DNA from: a virus
Taxonomy: Duplodnaviria > Heunggongvirae > Uroviricota > Caudoviricetes
Strand: one strand, 5' to 3'
Length of the DNA: 46,627 nt
IMG/VR virus record: IMGVR_UViG_2541047706_000005
Coordinates: 1 to 46,627 of that record
A program made the position numbers and the translations under genes. Shown in pieces: positions 25,470 through 46,627 of the stretch. The first letter of the stretch is position 1. Each line of letters begins with the position of its first letter. The notes under the pieces were generated by a model. The model ran no database searches and had not been told where the DNA came from. It was given only the letters and a program-made list of their open reading frames with translations.

Positions 25470-27086
<1,617 letters not shown>

Positions 27087-33756: not shown

Positions 33757-33879
33757 ACTGGGCGTCTAATGAGGGCTTCTGGCAGGTGATAAGGGAGATC
33801 ACCGGCGAGGAGTATGCCAGCCCGGCGCAGTACCGGCAGCGCTACCTTCTCGCCGCGCTCAAAGAAAGAGGTTTCTTCA

Positions 33880-35697
33880 ATGGTAGCTAAGTCGATCGTC
33901 GACATTGACGTAAATGACGACAAGTTTGTCGCGTTTATGGAAAGGTTTCGCGAGTACCAGAGCGCGCTGGATGATTTACCGGAAGCCTGGCGGGTAGCTG
34001 CCGTTGGTATTGGCGAAAGCAGCAAGCAGACCGAAAAGGCCAAAGGTGAGACGAAGGAGTTAGGCGCGGAGTTTAATGCCGTGGCCGAGGCCATTCTGAC
34101 TATCAACAGTGGTATCGATCGGCTCAATACCAACCTGGAAGACTCGAAGAAAAAGCAGGACGAATTCAACAAAAGTACTCGCTCTGCGAAGGGCTTCCTC
34201 AGCGATGCGACGAAAGACGCTAAATCGCTGGCAGGGCATATCAAGGAAGCGACGGCCAGCCTTCTGTCATGGGGTGGCATTGTCGGGATATTTACCGGCG
34301 TCCTTGGCGTTGGCGGCCTGTTCGGCATCAACCGGCTGGCTGCCACCACCGGTGCCCAGCGGTTTACTTCTCTCGGGCTTGGGACGAGTATCGGCGCACT
34401 TGATTCCACCGCCATAAACTACCAGAAAGCACTCGGTAATCCGGCGGGTACGCTGGGCGCTATCCGCGATTCGCAAATGGACCTGTCGAAGCGCTGGACG
34501 TTTCAGGCGATGGGGATTAACAACCCCGACCAGGACCCGGCCAAACTGCTCCCGCAGATGATCCGTAATGCGCGCGATATCTTCGTGCAGAACGGCAGCA
34601 CGCTGCAGGGCGCACAGGCGCACGGCCTGACAAACTTCTTTACACTGGACGACCTGAACCGCTTCAAAAACATGAGCGATGAAGAGATCACCGCCATGGA
34701 GAAGCGCGCGCAGCAGGATGCGCGTATGTTGCAAATTACCGACCAGCAGGCGCGCCAGTGGCAGGATTTTAACGTCCAGCTCGACTACAGCAGCCAGAGC
34801 ATCAGGAACACGTTTGTGCGCGGCCTGGGGCCACTCACGCCGCAACTGAGCAAGCTGTCTGATGCGCTGTCAGGCGCGATCGATACCGTTCTGAAATCAC
34901 CCGAACTCGGCAAGTGGATTGATGCGCTGGCCGGCGGCATTGAGCGATTCGGTAATTACCTCGCTTCTCCTGAATTTTCCACAGATGTAAGCAACTTTAT
35001 GGACAAAGTAGAGAAAATGGGAAATCTAATTGGCAAGGTTATTGATTGGGTAACAGGGAAAGCGAGTATCTCTACTGCGGATATATCATCCGGGGCAACG
35101 ATGTTGAGCCCAAGCACCATCATCGATCCGAAAACGGGAAAATCCTATACTCCTGGAAGCAATGATGACCCGCATGTATGGGGCTGGCTCAAGGGTGTTA
35201 GGCGCTTCTTTGAAGATGGAACCGTTAAAGCTGTTGATCCCACACCTGCAAATACTTCCGACAGAAACAGGACTATTGCAGATCGATTTAATAATCCGGG
35301 AAATCTGCGGTGGGCTGAAGGATATAGCAGCGAGAATACGAGAAGCGGTAAATTTGCCGTCTTCCCAACGCTGGATGAAGGCGTACTGGCGGCGACAAAG
35401 CAACTTCAAATGTATGGCGCTAAAGGAATAAATACGGTAGGAGATATTGCAAGAAAATGGGCTCCTCCTAAGGAAAATAATACCGCTGAGTATATTCGGC
35501 ATGTGGTTAAAACTACTGGATTTAATGAGAATCAGAAACTGAATCTCAATGATCCTCAGGTTATCGCGAAACTCATTTCTGCTATATCTCAAAAAGAAGG
35601 GGCTGGTAGCAGAGTTTCTGAGAGCACAGTCATTCAGATCTATAACAATACCGGTGGGAATGCAGTGGTAACTTCAGCGCAATTGGGGGCGAGGTAA
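33880..35697 (+). CDS. Tail tape measure protein (putative)
   Basis: About 605 aa, coiled-coil-rich N-half; start taken at internal MVAKSIV. Confidence 0.55.
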   Translation: MVAKSIVDIDVNDDKFVAFMERFREYQSALDDLPEAWRVAAVGIGESSKQTEKAKGETKELGAEFNAVAEAILTINSGIDRLNTNLEDSKKKQDEFNKSTRSAKGFLSDATKDAKSLAGHIKEATASLLSWGGIVGIFTGVLGVGGLFGINRLAATTGAQRFTSLGLGTSIGALDSTAINYQKALGNPAGTLGAIRDSQMDLSKRWTFQAMGINNPDQDPAKLLPQMIRNARDIFVQNGSTLQGAQAHGLTNFFTLDDLNRFKNMSDEEITAMEKRAQQDARMLQITDQQARQWQDFNVQLDYSSQSIRNTFVRGLGPLTPQLSKLSDALSGAIDTVLKSPELGKWIDALAGGIERFGNYLASPEFSTDVSNFMDKVEKMGNLIGKVIDWVTGKASISTADISSGATMLSPSTIIDPKTGKSYTPGSNDDPHVWGWLKGVRRFFEDGTVKAVDPTPANTSDRNRTIADRFNNPGNLRWAEGYSSENTRSGKFAVFPTLDEGVLAATKQLQMYGAKGINTVGDIARKWAPPKENNTAEYIRHVVKTTGFNENQKLNLNDPQVIAKLISAISQKEGAGSRVSESTVIQIYNNTGGNAVVTSAQLGAR

Positions 35698-38429: not shown

Positions 38430-38758
38430 GAACCTATGGCCGAAACTCTGAGGGGAAGTGGGTCCTGGTGGAAACCGACGAATATGGGTTTAATGACTCG
38501 GTGTATTTAACCACCCTGATCCAGAATCTGAAACTGGCGCCGCAGGAGTCGCCCTTTTACGCAAATAACGGAATCCCGGCCGCCGGGTCGGTGATCCAGC
38601 AAATCCTGCCGACGTATTACGTAAACCGTATTCAAAAACAGTTCAGCCAGTATTTTTCCTCGCTACAGATTGCGCTGATCAGCGACGACCCGCCTGTTTA
38701 TAACATCTCGGCAATCACAAACGCAGGTTCAAAAATAATTACACAGGTGGCCGTATGA
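38426..38758 (+). CDS. Small baseplate protein (GpW-like position)
   Basis: 110 aa preceding the J-like gene. Confidence 0.4.
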   Translation: MRTYGRNSEGKWVLVETDEYGFNDSVYLTTLIQNLKLAPQESPFYANNGIPAAGSVIQQILPTYYVNRIQKQFSQYFSSLQIALISDDPPVYNISAITNAGSKIITQVAV

Positions 38759-40173
38759 GCGATTTACCAGTCAGCTATACGTCAGCAGGCCCGGTTCCTC
38801 TGACGCCGGAAGAGCTAAGAGCACAGCTCGTTTCTCAGGCAATTGCGCTATCTCCGGGACTCACAACTGATTTGCCTGGATCTCTGATTGAGGACGTGGC
38901 CAGTACCGATGTCGGCGCGCTCATCGTTTGTGATCAAGCAAGGGTTGACCTGATTAACTCGGTGGGGCCACTAAAGGCTAACCTGGCCATGCTGGAGCTT
39001 CTCGCACAGCAGGCTGGTATCCCTGGGCAGAAAACGGCTGGCACAACAACAGTCCCGGTTCAGTTTTCCGGCCCCGCGGGATTTGTTATCCCACAGGGGT
39101 TTATTGTTTCTGATGGGACCTATACCTATTCAGTCAGTGATGCGACGATTATCTCGTCGTCTGGAGTATCTGCCAGCGTATCATGCGAGGGAACGGAGAC
39201 CGGGACCTGGGCGGTGCCGGTAAATACGGTTAACCAGATCATATCCAGTCTACCGTCTGACGTCACCATCACCTGCACCAACCCGATCGCCGGCACTCCG
39301 GGTGCTGACCCGGAAACGAACTATCAGTTTCGTGATCGCGTATGGCAGGCGCAGATGGCCACCGTTCAGGGATATCCTGGATTTATCCGGCAATATCTCA
39401 CCAGCCTTGATAACGTGCAGGCGCGCCTGGTTTCTGTCATTCAGGACGGGGATAAATGGATAGTCATGTGTGCCGGCGGTGATATTTACGATATTGCTGG
39501 CGCGCTCTATAAGTCTGCGGGGGATATCAGCCGGCTGAAAGGGTGTTCACTGAACGTAACGGGGATCACGAATGCAAATCCTGGTGTCGTCAGCACAGAC
39601 CTGACTCATGGTTACACTGACGGCCAGGTTATCCGGATCACTGGCGTTACCGGGATGACGGGTATTAATGACGTCCCTCTGACCGTGACGGTACTGTCTC
39701 CTCACACGTTTTCCATCGGGATTGACACCACGTCATCCGGGACCTGGGGAGGCGGCGGCGAGGTGACACCGAACGTCAGAAACAATACCGTGACGGTGAA
39801 TGACTGGCCTGATAACTACGTGATCCCGTTCGTGACGCCATTGCTGCAGCGGGTCACTGTGACGTATCAGTGGGGGACAGAAAGTGTTAACTACCTGACA
39901 GATGCCACGGTCGCCTCTCTGGTCTCGGCGCCTACGATTCAGTATGTGAACGGCATATTCGCCGGGAAACCGCTGAACGTTAACAACCTGAAAGACGCAT
40001 TTTTGCAGGCGATTAACTCGACAATCGACATGGGGCTGATCAGCACTCTAAACGTCGTGGTCACCATCAATGGTGTGATAACGCCACCGGATGCCGGGAC
40101 GAATATCATCAGCGGCGATAAGTTCAGTTATTTTTATATCGCGTCGGATGGCGTGATCGTAACAGGGGCGTAG
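38755..40173 (+). CDS. Baseplate J-like protein with Ig-like module
   Basis: 472 aa; contains THGYTDGQVIRITGVTGMTGINDVPLTVTVLSPHTFSI module. Confidence 0.5.
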   Translation: MSDLPVSYTSAGPVPLTPEELRAQLVSQAIALSPGLTTDLPGSLIEDVASTDVGALIVCDQARVDLINSVGPLKANLAMLELLAQQAGIPGQKTAGTTTVPVQFSGPAGFVIPQGFIVSDGTYTYSVSDATIISSSGVSASVSCEGTETGTWAVPVNTVNQIISSLPSDVTITCTNPIAGTPGADPETNYQFRDRVWQAQMATVQGYPGFIRQYLTSLDNVQARLVSVIQDGDKWIVMCAGGDIYDIAGALYKSAGDISRLKGCSLNVTGITNANPGVVSTDLTHGYTDGQVIRITGVTGMTGINDVPLTVTVLSPHTFSIGIDTTSSGTWGGGGEVTPNVRNNTVTVNDWPDNYVIPFVTPLLQRVTVTYQWGTESVNYLTDATVASLVSAPTIQYVNGIFAGKPLNVNNLKDAFLQAINSTIDMGLISTLNVVVTINGVITPPDAGTNIISGDKFSYFYIASDGVIVTGA

Positions 40174-40174
40174 C

Positions 40175-40879
40175 ATGCTGGACGATATCATCCGGTCGTA
40201 TATGTATACGCAATACAACGACGATGACAATCTGCGGGCGTTTTTTACTGCGTATAACTCGATGGCGCAGGGCATTTATGACTGGATGGTTAATGCCAAC
40301 CTGCCGATTTTCATCGGTGACTACAACACCGGAGACCAGCTCAGATGGATTGCCCATGGCATCTATGGCGTGTTGCCGCCGGTGATTTCCAGCAGCGATC
40401 AGCAGGAGATAGGCCCATATAACACCTTCGAATTTAACCAGTTGGCATTCAATGAATACCGGGTGATTGACCAGTCGAACCAGGTTGTTGTCTCCGATGA
40501 CATTTTTAAGCGGATCATGACCTGGAATTTTTATAAAGGTGACGGCTTCTATTTCTCTATCCCATGGATAAAACGGCGTATTCTGCGGTTCCTGTTGGGA
40601 GTGAATGGCACCGATATCCTCAATGACCAGCGGTGGAGTATATCGATCCAGTTTGTGGATGGCGGGATCGTGATATCCATCTATAAGGGGCGCCGCAGGT
40701 TCACGCGGAGCGCTATCTACAACGCATCGGCCTATAACTCCAGGAAGTACAACCAGAAGGACACGGCCTTTGTGATCACCGAGGATTTCGAGTTCGCTAT
40801 TTTCTTCAAGCAGGCCATGGATAGCGGCCTGCTGCACATGCCGTTCTATCAGTCAATTTCGGTGGAAATTATTGATTGA
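40175..40879 (+). CDS. Baseplate/tail protein
   Basis: ORF track. Confidence 0.45.
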   Translation: MLDDIIRSYMYTQYNDDDNLRAFFTAYNSMAQGIYDWMVNANLPIFIGDYNTGDQLRWIAHGIYGVLPPVISSSDQQEIGPYNTFEFNQLAFNEYRVIDQSNQVVVSDDIFKRIMTWNFYKGDGFYFSIPWIKRRILRFLLGVNGTDILNDQRWSISIQFVDGGIVISIYKGRRRFTRSAIYNASAYNSRKYNQKDTAFVITEDFEFAIFFKQAMDSGLLHMPFYQSISVEIID

Positions 40880-40937
40880 AGCACAGTTCCTGTGGTGTAG
40901 AATTTATCGCATCCACCACAGCATGGTTATCATTAAA

Positions 40938-41639
40938 ATGAAAAAATTGGTCCTTCTCGGATTATTGTCAGTTTCACTATGCACGGGTACTTCCCTTGCA
41001 GCTTCATTTGATTGCTCTAAAGCAAAAAGCTTTGCTGAGAAAACAATATGTGAGAACCCTAAGCTTTCAAAGGATGATGATGACTTAAAATATTTATATG
41101 CAAACGCTAAGGCATACACCAAAGACCGGAAGGCGTTTTCTGAGATAACTAAAGCTCTTTTGGATTCAAGAGAACGTTGCAGTGATCTCAAATGTGTTGA
41201 TGAATGGTATGATACTGCGTTTGCAATTTACGGCGCCATAAAGGAAACTGGCATACCAGAAACCAATGGCGTAAATGATATATTAAAGAATGAAGGTGTA
41301 ACAAAACCTTCAGAAATTAATGAAAAACCTACTGAGATTACAACGCCGTCAGCCAAGAAGACAAAGGAAAACAAAAAAGATTTTAGTTTGTACGACTCAA
41401 AGGATAGAGCCGCGCCAGTTGAACATAACGCAATATTATATAAAGACACTCCAGAGGCATTCGAATTTATAGATACACTTGTTGGGTTTGTCAGACAAAG
41501 CTCTTACAAATGTGACTCTGTTAGCTCTTTCATACCCTTGGTTTCATCGAATGGCTTTACGCTCGCATGTAATAAATTCAGCTACAAATATGAAATTAAA
41601 AATAACGGCGGAAATGTCTCTGTTTCTGTAGATAATTAG
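40938..41639 (+). CDS. Secreted DUF1311/LprI-like protein (moron)
   Basis: Signal peptide MKKLVLLGLLSVSLCTGTSLAAS; Cys motif C..A..FAEKTIC..P.L...D..L..LY; AT-rich, own promoter-like element and terminator. Confidence 0.6.
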   Translation: MKKLVLLGLLSVSLCTGTSLAASFDCSKAKSFAEKTICENPKLSKDDDDLKYLYANAKAYTKDRKAFSEITKALLDSRERCSDLKCVDEWYDTAFAIYGAIKETGIPETNGVNDILKNEGVTKPSEINEKPTEITTPSAKKTKENKKDFSLYDSKDRAAPVEHNAILYKDTPEAFEFIDTLVGFVRQSSYKCDSVSSFIPLVSSNGFTLACNKFSYKYEIKNNGGNVSVSVDN

Positions 41640-41687
41640 CTCAAAGCCCACGCCAGTGGGATTTCATAAATAACACATTGATAACAT

Positions 41688-41712
41688 CAAACCCGCTTCG
41701 GCGGGTTTTTTT
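41688..41712 (+). terminator. Rho-independent terminator after the moron
   Basis: aacccgc-ttcg-gcgggtt followed by T-run. Confidence 0.65.
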
Positions 41713-41733
41713 ATGCCTAAATCCGGAGGAGAC

Positions 41734-44640
41734 ATGGCACTAACCCTTTTGGCTACAAACAACGCAGAAAGCACGCTGGCTTCTGCTATCAGCGCAACCG
41801 ACACGTCGCTGATCGTTAGCGCTGGAACTGGTGCCGAGTTCCCTGATGCTGTGGCAGGCGAGAGCTACTTTAAACTCACTCTCACCGATGCCGCCACCGG
41901 CTCACAGGTTGAGATCGTGAACGTGACAGCCAAGGCTGGGGACATCTTCACGATTGAACGCGCACAGGAAGGAACGATGGCGCGTGCATGGGCGGCCAAC
42001 GATATGGTTGCCAATATGATGACCGCTGACACGCTGAATGTGATCGCACAATACACGCAGCAGGCCGGGGAATCAGCAGCACAGTCAATTGAGGCGGCTA
42101 ATAACGCCTCTGAATATGCAAAGAACAAATATACATTCTACAAAACCGCCGGCGATCCTGATGGCACCATTGCGGGCCTGGCGGCGACAACTGACGGACA
42201 GTCGTTCTGGGTAGCTCAGGGGCCAGATGCGCTTTCTGCTGCATGGCAGTATCAAAACAATGCTGGCGTGGCCGTATTGCAGGCAAAGCAGCCAGGCACG
42301 GCAGCCATAACCGGGACAATCCGCGAATTCCCCACGCTGGAGGCGGCACAGGATGATGCCGATGCCGGCAATATTCCTACAGGTTCAACTGCGTATTATC
42401 GAAGCGCTGACGACGAAACTCTTGCGATTGAGGTCATTAACACTTCAGGAACGCTGCAGCCTACTGGACGAAAAATGCCATCCGCAATGCCAATGGGTTA
42501 CCAGTCTGCTACAGCTGTGAGTAGCGGTGCGGCTAATACCATTGCTATCACTATCCCCGGATTATTAGTGGACGGAAGCTTAATTTATTTTCTGTCCCCT
42601 ATATTGAACACCTCATCAGTCAATGTGACTGTAACTGATGCTAAGGGTAATTCTGTAATAAGAGCTGTACAGAAACAAAATAACGCGCCATTAGTCGGAA
42701 GTGAATTGCTGCTAAACCAGCCAGTATTAATGGAATTCCGCACTGGGACTGCTAACAATTTTGTCCTTGTGGCATCCGGCCCAGTAGCTGCTGAACTTGC
42801 GTCAAGAATTTCCACGCTTGAATTAAATAGCGTAGCGTTATTGTCTGGCGTTGCTAATACTGCGGACGCCTACACCGCGTCAGCGTCAGCGATACCAGGC
42901 CTGGTTGCCTCTGACCGCGTTTTCCTTTTCACTCCGAGTGCGACGAACACGACACGGACGCCGACCTTATCCGTGAATGGCGGCACTGCGCGCCAGATCA
43001 AACAGGCGAATGGTACCAACGTCGCAGCGGGAGACCTGGTCTCTGGCTACCCTTATTTATTAAAATTCAATTTTGCATCGGCTGACTTTCGTATGCTCAC
43101 ATACCCAGCGGACCGGACGCGTCTGCTCAGCGGCCAGCAGAAGGCCACCGTAACCAGTGACGCAACAAGCCCGAACGCTATATCTTTAACAATCCCGGGC
43201 CTTATCGCGGACGGCACACAAATCACATTCGAGCCAGCTGTCACCAATACCGGGGCGGTGACGCTGCTAATCACCAACATGTATGGCGACACCGTGACTC
43301 GCACCCTGATGAAAGGGGCTAACACTCCTCTCGTCGGTGGTGAACTGAAGTACGCCATGCCGGTTTCTATCATGTTCAGGGGGGCTCCACAGAACAACTT
43401 TAAGCTCCTATATGCTGGCGACCCTACCACGGATATACAGACCCTATCGAACGACGTTACGACGCTCAAGGGGTCGCTGACAGACCCTTATGCTGCTCTG
43501 GCGGATAAACTCGTGGGCACCGGGGTATCATCAGACCAGTCACCATTCGGTACTATAACTTGGTCCGCGGGGGTTAAGAGCGTCACTAAGCGGCAGATCA
43601 TTTGTACGTCTGTCGGGTCTTCTGTTGGCGTTGGGGCCGGCTCTACTGGCGGTGGTGCGGCAGGTGCCGCTTATGCACCGAACACACTGTTCGTCAACGC
43701 CTTGAAGGAAGAGCTTAAACAGTACGGCGAGTTTGACGTCATCGATGACAACCAGTGCATACCAACTCAGGCGATTCAGCAGTTCGCTGCCCAGCTAGCG
43801 AATTCGCCTTATTCAACCTCCGACTTTGTTTTGATTGTAGGGGGGATGAATGATGCGCCAGTTGGTAACTTCAACATGGGGCGCACATTCCCCGGTCAAC
43901 AAACGTCTCTCGAGTCGCTGGTAGACTTGTGTCTGGCACGAGGAGCGATTCCAATCATTTGCACTACTCCACATCATAATGTGGAAATGTCTCAGACGTA
44001 CCCCACAATCCCCGGTGGTAACCCGCTGTTCTGGCCGTTCAGGACATATAATGTCACAAGTACATATGTCTTCGACGCCGTTGCAAATACCATCACGCAG
44101 AGTAACTTTGCTAACCCGAATTATGGCGGCAATATTCTGAAGCCGGGGCATACTCTGCGCGTAGAAAGTGGAGACAATATCGGCAACTATACTATCACGG
44201 CCATTTCCTCTGACCGGAATACCATAACCGTCCAAGAGACAATCCCGGTAAGTGGAAGCTACTCGACAACGGTCAGACACTTTAACCTGCAGTCCATCGC
44301 TGAGGATATTCTTTACCCTGCACCGTCGGTTTCCTTTGTAACAAAAGACTGGTCCGGTAGCGGCGTTAAGGTACAGGGAGATGTGCGGTTCGAAATGGTG
44401 AATAATATGCAAAGGGTCGTCGCACGCAAAAAAGGCGCGTTCCTCGCAGACTGTGAAAAGTCGTTCTTTAAGTATGGTGTAGAGGTTGGTGGTTACTCGT
44501 CGGTATATAACGTCCCAGCTGGAAACTACAATCACATGAACGATAACGGGTACACAGTAACTTTCGACTACACGCTGAAAGTCGCAGCAAGGAAGATTGC
44601 CAATCTCATATTCGGAGATAAATATTACTCTGCAGCATAA
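41734..44640 (+). CDS. Tail fibre protein with three internal repeats and C-terminal SGNH/GDSL-hydrolase-like domain
   Basis: N-terminal domain shared with second fibre; three approximately 90-aa repeats (IPGL..DG...PLVGGEL...NF.L); C-terminal blocks GSSVG and GGMNDAP. Confidence 0.65.
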   Translation: MALTLLATNNAESTLASAISATDTSLIVSAGTGAEFPDAVAGESYFKLTLTDAATGSQVEIVNVTAKAGDIFTIERAQEGTMARAWAANDMVANMMTADTLNVIAQYTQQAGESAAQSIEAANNASEYAKNKYTFYKTAGDPDGTIAGLAATTDGQSFWVAQGPDALSAAWQYQNNAGVAVLQAKQPGTAAITGTIREFPTLEAAQDDADAGNIPTGSTAYYRSADDETLAIEVINTSGTLQPTGRKMPSAMPMGYQSATAVSSGAANTIAITIPGLLVDGSLIYFLSPILNTSSVNVTVTDAKGNSVIRAVQKQNNAPLVGSELLLNQPVLMEFRTGTANNFVLVASGPVAAELASRISTLELNSVALLSGVANTADAYTASASAIPGLVASDRVFLFTPSATNTTRTPTLSVNGGTARQIKQANGTNVAAGDLVSGYPYLLKFNFASADFRMLTYPADRTRLLSGQQKATVTSDATSPNAISLTIPGLIADGTQITFEPAVTNTGAVTLLITNMYGDTVTRTLMKGANTPLVGGELKYAMPVSIMFRGAPQNNFKLLYAGDPTTDIQTLSNDVTTLKGSLTDPYAALADKLVGTGVSSDQSPFGTITWSAGVKSVTKRQIICTSVGSSVGVGAGSTGGGAAGAAYAPNTLFVNALKEELKQYGEFDVIDDNQCIPTQAIQQFAAQLANSPYSTSDFVLIVGGMNDAPVGNFNMGRTFPGQQTSLESLVDLCLARGAIPIICTTPHHNVEMSQTYPTIPGGNPLFWPFRTYNVTSTYVFDAVANTITQSNFANPNYGGNILKPGHTLRVESGDNIGNYTITAISSDRNTITVQETIPVSGSYSTTVRHFNLQSIAEDILYPAPSVSFVTKDWSGSGVKVQGDVRFEMVNNMQRVVARKKGAFLADCEKSFFKYGVEVGGYSSVYNVPAGNYNHMNDNGYTVTFDYTLKVAARKIANLIFGDKYYSAA

Positions 44641-44974
44641 GGAATTATCATGGCTTTTAAAATTTCAGCAGTAAAACTGTCCAGATTTATTATCTCGGAG
44701 GATTTCTGTGTGAAAAGGATATCGGTATTGACCTCATTTACTCAGTAGAAAGCGTCAGGCAGGGTGATGCAGGTCAAGTTAAAGCCTCAGTATCTGTTCG
44801 ATATAATGATGCGTCCAGAGTTAACGCTGGAGAGTATGCGGTAACTCTGGACACTTCGTCATCAAAACCGTGGACAGAACAGGCTGAGCAGCAACTTATG
44901 CAAGCTGAAGAGTTTGCTGGGGCAGTTGTCCTGTAACCACAAAAAAAACCTACGCAGACTGAACGGGGTTGACT

Positions 44975-45022
44975 GCCCTCCGATAAAACTACTGTATATA
45001 ACAACAGTGTTTATCGGAGGGC
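44975..45022 (+). promoter_or_regulatory. LexA (SOS) box CTGTATATAACAACAG nested in a 13-15-bp perfect inverted repeat, overlapping a promoter
   Basis: CTGT-N8-ACAG at about 44992..45007; flanking arms gccctccgataaa / tttatcggagggc; TTGACT upstream; ggaggg RBS and ATG downstream. Confidence 0.6.
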
Positions 45023-45027
45023 AGATC

Positions 45028-45267
45028 ATGCTTCGACAGTCAGACATCGCCGCGGCTTTCCGCGAGTCCATTTTGCGCAGTTCCAAGGGGTTCCAGTACC
45101 TCCACACCCGCGACTTCGTTACCGCGCTTCGCCGGCGTGGCATCCATTTTTCCGAGGTGGAGGCGAACTCCTGGATCGCACGCGAGCAGACGTATTTCGT
45201 CGATAAGACGCCGGACCATAGCGAAAACAGGCTGTGGATGATGGCCAACATGGGGAGGGTGATCTAA
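45028..45267 (+). CDS. Small protein (79 aa) of unknown function, putatively SOS-regulated
   Basis: Start MLRQSDIAAAF with RBS; within ORF-track frame 44914..45267. Confidence 0.5.
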   Translation: MLRQSDIAAAFRESILRSSKGFQYLHTRDFVTALRRRGIHFSEVEANSWIAREQTYFVDKTPDHSENRLWMMANMGRVI

Positions 45268-45584
45268 TGGGATTCCCTTCACCAGCGACGGACTACGTTG
45301 AGCAAAGGTTGTCTGTTAACTCGATCTGCAATGTCGGCCCAAACACGCTAGTTTTCGAGCGATCTGGCGGTTACGTTGTGCTGGATATCTCCCTGAAGCC
45401 AAAGCAGGGTAGTCAGGTTCTTATCCAGCACGGCGGCGGGACGGAGCTTGCCACGCTGAGAGGAAAGTCACTGATTACTGAAGATGGTGAAGCGATCGAG
45501 GGCGAAGCCCTGGACGATGTTACTGTCATCGGCGTCGTGACGTTTACTATCTGCGATGTTCGTTCCGATAATTCTATTATTTAA
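45267..45584 (+). CDS. UmuD'-like protein lacking the N-terminal arm and apparently lacking the catalytic Ser
   Basis: Begins MGFPSPATDYVEQRLSVN, aligning with UmuD from its Cys24-Gly25 cleavage site (CGFPSPAADYVEQR); SGDSM region reads RSGGYV. Confidence 0.55.
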   Translation: MGFPSPATDYVEQRLSVNSICNVGPNTLVFERSGGYVVLDISLKPKQGSQVLIQHGGGTELATLRGKSLITEDGEAIEGEALDDVTVIGVVTFTICDVRSDNSII

Positions 45585-45595
45585 CTGGGGTATAT

Positions 45596-46627
45596 ATGGC
45601 GATGAAGCTATTAGCCAATAATAACGCAAAGAGTGTTCTCGCTGCGGGTATTAGCGCGTCCGCTACCGTTATTACCGTGGGTACTGGAGCGGGGTCTTTA
45701 TTCCCGTCCCCTGTATCTGGGCAGAGTTATTTCAAATTAACGATAACCGACGCGGCCACGAAAACAATTTCTGAAATTATGCACGTCACGTCTGTATCCG
45801 GTGACGTGATGACAGTAATTCGTGGTCAGGAAGGAACTACGGCACGCGTATGGTCAACGAATGACATTGTCGCGAATTTAATGACCGCCGGATCATTGTT
45901 GTCGTTCCTGCAGATCAGCAATAACCTGTCAGAAATTAAAGATGCCGGTGAGGATGCGATAAATGAAGCCCGTTATAACCTCGGAATATCTGATTCCTCT
46001 GGTTTTGTCGGGCGTTCACTTGGCGCTCCAAAAGCTTTCTATGCAAACGGAACCTATACGCGATCTCCTCTGGCCCGTTATGCAAAAGTAACGTTGACCG
46101 GTGCCGGTGGCGGCGGTGGCGGCTGCCAGGCCTCCAACAATACAGAAACCTTCTCCGGTGCTGGCGGCGGCGCGGGCGCGACCATTATCGTATGGGTTGA
46201 CCTGTCTGCTGCCAGTTCTTATGCGATTACTGTCGGCAAGGGTGGTAAGGGCGGAGTTGGCGCAGTAAGTGGTGCGGATGGTGGGGCCACCTCGTTTGCC
46301 AGCCTGTTCTCAGCTCCTGGCGGGAAAGGAGGAGTGAAGTCAGGCGTGTCCAATACCGCCGGCGGCGCCGGAGGTACGGCGGCGACCGGAGATATCAGGA
46401 TCAACGGTGGTACCGGCTCAGATGGACAGACAGGCTCAAGCCTTCTGACGGGCAACGGCGGGGCGTCGTATTTTGGCGGCGGTGGCCGGGCGGGTTCTCA
46501 GGCCGGTATTGCTGGCGCAGCTCCCGGATCCGGTGGTGGTGGCGCGTATGACCTTGGGTTTACCGGTACGGCATTTACCGGTGGTGATGGTGCTACTGGC
46601 ATGGCGATCGTGGAAGAATTCGCGTAA
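45596..46627 (+). CDS. Second tail-fibre protein (paralogous N-terminus, Gly-rich C-terminal domain)
   Basis: N-terminal about 100 aa alignable with the first fibre; C-terminus rich in GGxGG repeats. Confidence 0.65.
   Translation: MAMKLLANNNAKSVLAAGISASATVITVGTGAGSLFPSPVSGQSYFKLTITDAATKTISEIMHVTSVSGDVMTVIRGQEGTTARVWSTNDIVANLMTAGSLLSFLQISNNLSEIKDAGEDAINEARYNLGISDSSGFVGRSLGAPKAFYANGTYTRSPLARYAKVTLTGAGGGGGGCQASNNTETFSGAGGGAGATIIVWVDLSAASSYAITVGKGGKGGVGAVSGADGGATSFASLFSAPGGKGGVKSGVSNTAGGAGGTAATGDIRINGGTGSDGQTGSSLLTGNGGASYFGGGGRAGSQAGIAGAAPGSGGGGAYDLGFTGTAFTGGDGATGMAIVEEFA

Follow-up and report, generated by a model that had tools for sequence, protein, structure and literature searches.

Glycine-rich short fibres and their partners in other phages

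A short tail fibre with 'a rare polyglycine rich domain' is already known from the Klebsiella phage RothD, in which it was described as gp33 (PMC12629751). In the same study, the KlebPhaCol paper, the family Felixviridae was proposed for temperate myophages of the RothD/Chronis type (PMC12629751). A tip built on glycine-rich motifs has also been described for gp24 of the cyanophage Pam3 (PDB 7YPX / 7YFW). In this protein, 12 such motifs form a four-layer lattice, and the variable distal loops were proposed to bind the receptor (PMC9608196). Moreover, each wedge of the minimal myophage baseplate of Pam3 offers sites for two fibres (PMC9942802). For a related fibre, the function is known from the Klebsiella myophage vB_KpnM_SCNJ1-Y, in which the depolymerase Dep-Y strips the capsule, the primary receptor, and TFP_Y binds LPS, the secondary receptor (PMC12671077). 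Mutations of TFP_Y that alter the host range lie in its glycine-rich domain, and DNA ejection in response to LPS is blocked by the purified protein (PMC12671077). TFP_Y is also active when produced alone in E. coli (PMC12671077). As regards enzymatic receptor-binding proteins (RBPs), those of the SGNH type are among the commonest in Klebsiella prophages, and two of them are proven active esterases (PMC13123978).

Other described proteins share single features with the short fibre that is the subject of this work, here called F2. For instance, the structure of the fibre of the Ralstonia podophage GP4 (8JOV) was reported by Zheng et al. (2023, J Mol Biol), as cited in PMC11445570. The GP4 fibres hang from an adaptor ring at the neck (PMC11445570), and their distal parts are unrelated to F2. 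The T-even adhesin gp38 of the Salmonella phage S16 (PDB 6F45) shares with F2 a polyglycine scaffold and hypervariable loops, which in gp38 bind outer-membrane proteins or LPS. However, gp38 caps the gp37 fibre as a monomer and its lattice has three layers, and neither a Pfam nor a fold match to the T-even gp38 family was obtained for F2. Finally, gp33 of the mycobacteriophage Bxb1 (PDB 9D93), the 'tail wing brush', is an accessory of a siphophage tail tip, the attachment of which differs from that of F2.

Genome context and the large fibre

The window, which is the whole stretch of 46,627 nucleotides that was analysed, is assigned by its sequence to a Klebsiella-type temperate phage with a contractile tail from the RothD/Chronis group, i.e. 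the proposed Felixviridae. Positions 21700-46627 are 95.4% identical to Klebsiella phage vB_Kpn_Chronis (Chronis) across 81% of this region and 94.4% identical to RothC/D across 73% at the nucleotide level. Membership in the group is evident from the shared core, which the terminase and the DUF2612-like gene delimit, and synteny agrees. The large fibre, F1, is preceded by terminase, portal, sheath and baseplate hub genes and by the gene of a tape-measure protein bearing a transglycosylase domain. The integrase is located at the end of the window opposite to F2. The two wedge genes upstream of F1 are candidate docking partners of both fibres. The features of the locus are compiled in Table 1.

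Table 1 Position and basis of the features discussed in the text
Feature	Position	Strand	Basis
Baseplate_J-like wedge gene	38755-40173	+	Pfam Baseplate_J, E 6e-12; phrog_6 and phrog_8212 listed for the wedge pair
DUF2612-like wedge gene	40175-40879	+	PdC23 ortholog annotated DUF2612
F1, large RBP, 968 aa	41734..44640	+	ORF; PHROG tail-fibre families
F1 N-terminal anchor, aa 1-101	41734..42036	+	BLASTP vs F2; conserved in RothC, Chronis and L006
F1 conserved neck, aa ~120-255	42091..42498	+	BLASTP among large RBPs of F2 loci
Probable SGNH/GDSL esterase domain of F1	43615..44001	+	Pfam Lipase_GDSL_2, E 6.2e-6
LexA box CTGTATATAACAACAG	44992-45007	+	Perfect CTGT-N8-ACAG match, 21 nt 5' of the p79 ATG
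p79, 79 aa, phrog_3893	45028..45267	+	89% identical to RothC homolog
UmuD'/HumD-like gene, 105 aa	45267..45584	+	phrog_3469, E 2e-46
F2, short tail fibre, 343 aa	45596..46627	+	ORF listing; PHROG tail-fibre families
F2 N-terminal anchor domain, beta-rich, aa 1-~97	45596..45886	+	Paralogous to F1 N-terminus
F2 helical linker/neck, aa ~98-145	45887..46030	+	Predicted helices 98-105, 111-116 and 119-128
F2 TNF-like plus glycine-rich (TG) receptor-binding domain, aa 146-343	46031..46624	+	

The ORF of F1 is listed from position 41713. However, a strong terminator hairpin (41689-41708) lies directly upstream of the start region and the ATG at 41734 has a Shine-Dalgarno motif (AGGAGG) 6 nt upstream. 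The true product therefore has 968 residues, because the Shine-Dalgarno motif precedes this ATG, just past the terminator. The neck of F1 matches PHROGs 31000, 19652 and 38670 (E 1e-63 to 1e-73), and it is common to the large RBPs at most of the F2-carrying loci that were examined. Residues 197-250 alone are common to all seven loci (7/7), and in the RBP of locus L008 the similarity begins at residue 197. The remainder of F1 beyond the neck is long and variable and carries the GDSL/SGNH match. The match of F1 to Lipase_GDSL_2 is weak (27.3 bits, under the cut-off of 32.9), and the F1 ortholog at locus L006 gives clear GDSL matches (PF13472 and PF00657). Thus, F1 probably carries an SGNH esterase.

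The second fibre gene

F2 is a genuine second, short tail fibre. Its ORF begins with ATG, and the TAA stop codon ends on the final base of the window. The coordinates under which the earlier note had reported a second tail-fibre gene are exact, and the product matches the PHROG tail-fibre families 863, 6202 and 454 (E 4.5e-65 to 1.7e-39). The cluster of its closest homolog comprises 797 members from Klebsiella that are named 'glycine-rich domain-containing protein'. The search of NCBIfam gave no match to F1 or F2, and F2 has no signal peptide. We consider it very likely that F2 is a structural short fibre bearing a receptor-binding tip.

By position and gene numbering, the ortholog of F2 is the published short fibre of RothD, gp33, and its counterpart in RothC, XDI99192 (genus Nakavirus). 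There, p79 and the UmuD'-like gene are followed by the short fibre as the last gene on the late strand, and then by the integrase. The N-domain of the RothD gp33/RothC fibre is 96% identical to that of F2, and PF21722 is present as well. However, the tip has diverged to 43% identity (tblastn), and the nucleotide similarity ends at about residue 99. The partners also differ, as the F1 of RothC is a protein of 640 aa of the tailspike type, whereas the F1 of the window is of the SGNH type and has 968 aa.

Two anchors of common descent

The N-termini of F1 and F2 are homologous. The earlier note had described a similarity over about 100 residues, and the formal alignment places it far beyond chance: BLASTP aligned both proteins without gaps over 101 residues with 57 identities (56%) and 76% positives (E = 1e-32). 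No further significant segment was detected outside these residues. When F1 is read from the ATG at 41734, the proteins align at residue 1 (MALTLLATNNA in F1 and MAMKLLANNNA in F2). Residues 1-~100 of F2 also resemble the N-terminus of the GP4 fibre, by which the GP4-type anchor domain is defined here (8JOV chain 1; PHROGs 6427, 8469, 25419 and 30299), in both sequence and fold. The E values against this chain are 5.3e-7 for F2 and 1.3e-8 for the N-terminus of F1 (8jov_1), and the entry was identified via tblastn of the aligned segment. It was thus reasonable to label the N-terminus an attachment domain, because it is homologous to the part of the GP4 fibre that is ordered in the virion (8JOV).

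Among the window, RothC and Chronis, the N-domain of F1 is 99-100% identical to that of F1 in the other phages, and the N-domain of F2 is 93-97% identical to that of F2 in the other phages. Within any one of these phages, the N-domains of F1 and F2 share only 57-60% identity. Locus L006 has the pair of paralogous anchors too, and its F1 anchor is also 99-100% identical. At the DNA level, most of the synonymous sites differ between the N-domains of F1 and F2, and the best repeat comprises 62 nt with 74% identity. From these sequence comparisons, the anchors are old paralogs that have been held separate; they are neither recent duplicates nor homogenised by gene conversion. A similar arrangement exists elsewhere, as the virulent Pantoea phage PdC23 has two adjacent genes for N-domain fibres right after its DUF2612 gene, and GP4, Bcep22, JC1, Itty13 and others have two copies of the N-domain each. 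The dual RBPs that the earlier note had proposed can thus be recognised at the level of sequence: both RBP genes are intact, and their paralogous anchors form two separate orthologous lineages.

The same note had also suggested host-range switching, for which the locus gives no indication. F1 and F2 are both intact and lie on the same strand. Neither significant inverted repeats bracketing F1 and F2 nor an invertase or reverse transcriptase gene between or beside the fibres was found, and the coding regions of the two N-domains have no long identical tract in common. A search for inverted or direct repeats gave the 62-nt match as the only repeat between F1 and F2. Inversion systems such as Mu Gin or P1 Cin and diversity-generating retroelements (DGR) were rejected as models, since the locus contains no element on which inversion or recombination could act.

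The glycine-rich tip

The C-terminal part of F2 is unrelated to F1, as had been claimed before: beyond the N-domain, BLASTP finds nothing significant, and the tip belongs to PF21722 and has the fold of Pam3 gp24. Residues 153-340 match PF21722 (Gly_rich_2) with 52.5 bits (cut-off 24.3; E 8.5e-14), and the match spans positions 7-224 of the 226 positions of the profile. The 198 residues from 146 to 343 contain 29% glycine and 11-12 G-rich motifs. An AlphaFold model of F2, which is a monomer prediction from an alignment of 42 homologs, has a mean pLDDT of 87. Residues 145-343 exceed 90, and low values are found at residues 97-109 in the neck. In this model, F2 adopts the predicted fold of a TG tip, i.e. 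a beta-sandwich that is extended into a multilayer glycine-rich lattice. Across the 42 homologs, the glycines of the tip are invariant or nearly so, and the spacers between them are of high entropy. Both the motif count and the combination of invariant glycines with variable spacers match Pam3 gp24. However, the anchor of the Pam3 fibre is an alpha-helical bundle that is linked to the wedge by a disulfide, whereas that of F2 is beta-rich and of the GP4 type.

TFP_Y of SCNJ1-Y (297 aa) belongs to PF21722 like F2, as found by profile search, and its gene adjoins a DUF2612 gene. Like the window phage, SCNJ1-Y has a short PF21722 fibre alongside an enzymatic RBP. The direct similarity of both fibres is confined to just 53 aa with 43% identity (BLASTP, E 5e-8). 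Moreover, the N-terminus of TFP_Y is different and helical, SCNJ1-Y is a virulent Jedunavirus, and TFP_Y is partnered by a depolymerase, not by an esterase.

Pam3 has a single type of fibre and a dedicated chaperone, gp25, which is encoded downstream, whereas the F2 locus is devoid of a chaperone gene. No gene for a fibre chaperone is present 3' of F2 in the window, RothC, Chronis, L005 and L006. The next gene after F2 is an integrase on the opposite strand in RothC and Chronis, and host DNA follows in L005 and L006. The UmuD'-like protein was considered as a chaperone of F2 and rejected, because the viable isolate Chronis has a truncated remnant of only 68 aa upstream of an intact F2.

The LexA-box cassette between the fibres

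The interval between F1 and F2 starts with about 390 nt that lack a startable ORF. It then contains a LexA box followed by p79 and the UmuD'-like gene. The LexA box is kept in RothC, L005 and L006 though the flanks diverge, and the SOS regulation that the earlier note had ascribed to this cassette is thus supported at the level of the motif. No Pfam match was obtained for p79. The start of the UmuD'-like gene overlaps the stop of p79 by 1 nt, and its end lies 11 nt before the ATG of F2. The UmuD'-like protein matches the NCBIfam model HumD with E 1.6e-12 and 47.5 bits (cut-off 120). When aligned with E. coli UmuD (an approximate query), the similarity begins at Gly25, and a tyrosine occupies the position of Ser60. 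The protein would therefore correspond to a pre-processed form that starts at the equivalent of the post-cleavage Gly25 and in which the catalytic Ser60 is replaced by Tyr.

The cassette was searched for in other Enterobacterales with one genome per species, which yielded 30 loci. The LexA box is present at 24 of these 30 loci, at prophage ends, and an N-domain of the F1 or F2 type follows the cassette at none of them (0/30). The cassette is therefore an independent moron, and the idea that F2 must go together with the SOS cassette was rejected. A role in defence was rejected as well, as PADLOC gave no match for p79, the UmuD'-like protein, the signal-peptide moron and F2. Searches for a terminator or promoter between F2 and the upstream genes returned only matches at chance level.

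Exchange of tips and mosaicism

At the F2 locus of relatives, the N-domain is 90-100% identical, and the C-terminus is glycine-rich, gp53-like (L005) or of the Collar type (L006). Among the glycine-rich versions of F2, the anchor is 86-89% identical and the identity of the tip falls to 32-33%. A steady anchor and a tip that diversifies are together the usual hallmark of a functional receptor-binding protein. A mosaic breakpoint is located at about nt 45892, where the nucleotide similarity to RothC stops; the similarity to Chronis stops at 45944.

A larger exchange unit is seen in the records OZ035751 and OZ035745, which share with the window a block of 4.2-4.5 kb that is 98% identical and extends from distal F1 through F2. 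These records have different baseplate genes, the N-terminus of their large RBP differs and no anchor of the F1 type is present; each has an additional glycine-rich short fibre of its own. Locus L005 resembles them in this respect, and its F2 is gp53-like. Despite the other baseplate genes, the N-domain of F2 is 90-99% identical in OZ035751, OZ035745 and L005. The two records that carry 99.8%-identical copies of F2 bear the labels 'Lambdavirus' and 'Wanchaivirus'. The reading of these two as siphophages was rejected, because their ORFs include Baseplate_J/wedge-type genes and extra fibres, to which a lambda-like tail is unfitting.

A possible division of labour between the two fibres

We favour, with some reservation, a model in which the two fibres act in sequence. 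The phage would have two trimeric RBPs that are built upon the paralogous N-terminal anchors, and both would probably be present simultaneously, at separate sites, on a simple baseplate like that of Mu or Pam3. F1, with its putative esterase, would most likely recognise and deacetylate the capsule or O-antigen. In the tip of F2, the glycine motifs would serve as a scaffold, and the variable loops would touch the receptor. By analogy to TFP_Y, F2 would probably bind a secondary receptor near the outer membrane, for which LPS is the likeliest candidate, and this binding would then help to commit the baseplate to contraction. The short fibre is thus probably needed for an irreversible step of infection. 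We assume that a single host is engaged through two receptors, one after the other, and not that there are alternative hosts, because the analogous system of SCNJ1-Y works in this way.

Some observations point in the other direction. Pam3 gp24 requires a chaperone that is encoded downstream (PMC9608196), and F2 has none. Moreover, F2 is located outside the contiguous baseplate operon, behind the LexA-box cassette. The N-domain of F2 is also retained beside other baseplate genes and in the absence of an F1-type anchor, which is hard to square with a docking site that is specific for Felixviridae. Finally, the assignment of the receptor relies on one distant analogue, TFP_Y.

Alternative explanations

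It is conceivable but unlikely that F1 and F2 are alternative fibres for a dual host range, which compete for one baseplate socket and give rise to virions of mixed or single type. Each fibre would then give access to another type of host or receptor, which corresponds to the dual specificity of the earlier note. The anchors are homologous and the C-termini are unrelated and exchangeable, as expected for such fibres, and a shared N-terminal chassis has been proposed as a plug-and-play principle for Klebsiella phages (bioRxiv 10.64898/2026.05.12.724579). However, two anchor lineages that are conserved separately are more easily explained by different docking contexts, for which the two fibre sites per wedge of Pam3-type baseplates would provide room (PMC9942802). 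In SCNJ1-Y, both RBPs act on the same host, one after the other (PMC12671077), and no switching element was found between or beside the fibres of the window. It is hardly probable that F2 has no place in the virion and is a passenger or moron product of the prophage end, made from the SOS promoter together with p79 and the UmuD'-like protein, or the relic of a decaying fibre. Hundreds of genomes have an undisrupted F2 frame (the 797-member cluster), the anchor is strongly conserved and the tip diversifies, and a signal peptide is absent from F2. The SOS cassette occurs at 30 other loci without F2 and therefore does not form a functional unit with it. In addition, the virulent phage PdC23 holds both fibre genes beside its baseplate genes. 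These findings stand against the position of F2, which follows the LexA-box cassette after a gap of 11 nt that has no terminator and is the final gene before the attachment site, typical moron territory, and against the loci L007 and L008, which carry F2 minus the matching F1 anchor.

Branched tailspike systems are known from G7C, CBA120 and KP32-like phages. In such a complex, F2 would dock on the neck of the large RBP (F1 aa ~120-255, minimally 197-250), a reading that we regard as improbable. It would be consistent with the large RBPs of L005, L007 and L008, from three backgrounds whose baseplate genes differ, which keep the neck but have no F1-type N-domain and are accompanied by an F2 N-domain that is 90-99% identical, and with the block from distal F1 to F2 that transfers as a single 98%-identical unit. 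However, an identity of 98% indicates that the transfer was recent, and F2 may merely have hitch-hiked when a recombination was favoured by selection on the capsule-specific portion of F1. In PdC23, both fibres have the N-domain but the neck region is missing, and the homologous domain of GP4 anchors to tail proteins and not to another fibre (8JOV; PMC11445570). A combined reading has only a slim chance of being correct, namely that F2 is the third gene of a LexA-controlled operon and docks on the neck of the large fibre instead of the baseplate. If F2 were wired to the SOS response, DNA damage would directly set the supply of F2, beyond the late promoter of the phage. Docking on the neck of F1 would explain the intact transfer of the block from distal F1 to F2 between unrelated baseplates.

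Implications

Publications already exist on the ortholog of F2, on the fold of its tip, on what a related fibre does and on the shared N-terminal chassis as a principle. The present analysis thus extends the observations on RothD gp33, SCNJ1-Y TFP_Y and Pam3 gp24 by one more phage and leaves their understanding unchanged. Mild novelty lies only in the possibilities that F2 is transcribed under SOS control and that it docks on F1. In practical terms, a widespread group of gut-associated temperate myophages carries a short glycine-rich fibre besides an esterase-type RBP. Klebsiella prophages are currently screened both for capsule-specific enzymes and with a view to predicting host ranges, and a prediction based on the depolymerase or esterase alone would overlook F2. 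Moreover, the clean break after the anchor of about 100 aa is a natural junction for the engineering of chimeric fibres.

The cassette between the two fibre genes

The cassette, consisting of a LexA box, a 79-aa gene and a UmuD'-like gene (see table), is a module widespread at prophage ends. It recurs at 30 loci in Atlantibacter, Enterobacter, Leclercia, Citrobacter, Pantoea, Erwinia and other genera, and a perfect CTGT-N8-ACAG motif is present upstream in 24 of them. The UmuD' homolog begins at the equivalent of Gly25 of UmuD, which corresponds to the pre-processed form, and carries Tyr where UmuD has its catalytic Ser60. The 79-aa protein belongs to phrog_3893; searches of Pfam and PADLOC gave no match.

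Two public phage records, Lambdavirus PDP110P1 (OZ035751) and Wanchaivirus PDP110P2 (OZ035745), share with the window a 98%-identical block comprising the distal part of fibre 1, the cassette and fibre 2. The large receptor-binding protein of both records differs from fibre 1 of the window at its N-terminus, and each record has its own additional glycine-rich short fibre. Moreover, both encode Baseplate_J/wedge-type genes, and their genus names look at odds with their gene content.

Surroundings of fibre 1

The stretch of about 390 nt located 3' of fibre 1 contains no startable ORF. One frame runs on to ...SSSKPWTEQAEQQLMQAEEFAGAVVL* and has no ATG, GTG or TTG near its beginning. At the same position, the related phage RothC carries a 225-aa and a 432-aa gene and Chronis a 245-aa gene. 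This stretch is probably a gene remnant in a moron hot spot.

Upstream, an inserted gene separates fibre 1 from the DUF2612-like baseplate gene; its product has a signal peptide and shares 63% identity with Chronis gp22. This gene has a strong intrinsic terminator of its own, which late transcription must therefore read through before it arrives at either fibre gene.

Head and tail genes

The 537-aa ORF is an unusual fusion in the head module: its N-terminus is NUDIX-hydrolase-like (phrog_1198, E 2e-16), and it also resembles head-maturation proteases (the other two families listed). The tape-measure protein carries a C-terminal lytic-transglycosylase/endolysin-like domain (residues 475-615; phrog_873, E 6e-35).

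Coordinates of the features discussed
Feature	Sequence	Position	Family
537-aa ORF, 3' of portal gene	window	25473-27086	phrog_1198, phrog_530, phrog_2229
Tape-measure protein, 627 aa	window	33814-35697	
Low-GC (about 38%) gene, 238-aa product with signal peptide	window	40923-41708	phrog_33858
Terminator of the 238-aa gene	window	41689-41708	
Stretch 3' of fibre 1	window	44641-45027	
Cassette	window	44992-45584	
Shared block	OZ035751	9001-13555	
Shared block	OZ035745	9001-13240	
Additional short fibre	OZ035751	7448-8743	
Additional short fibre	OZ035745	7529-8428
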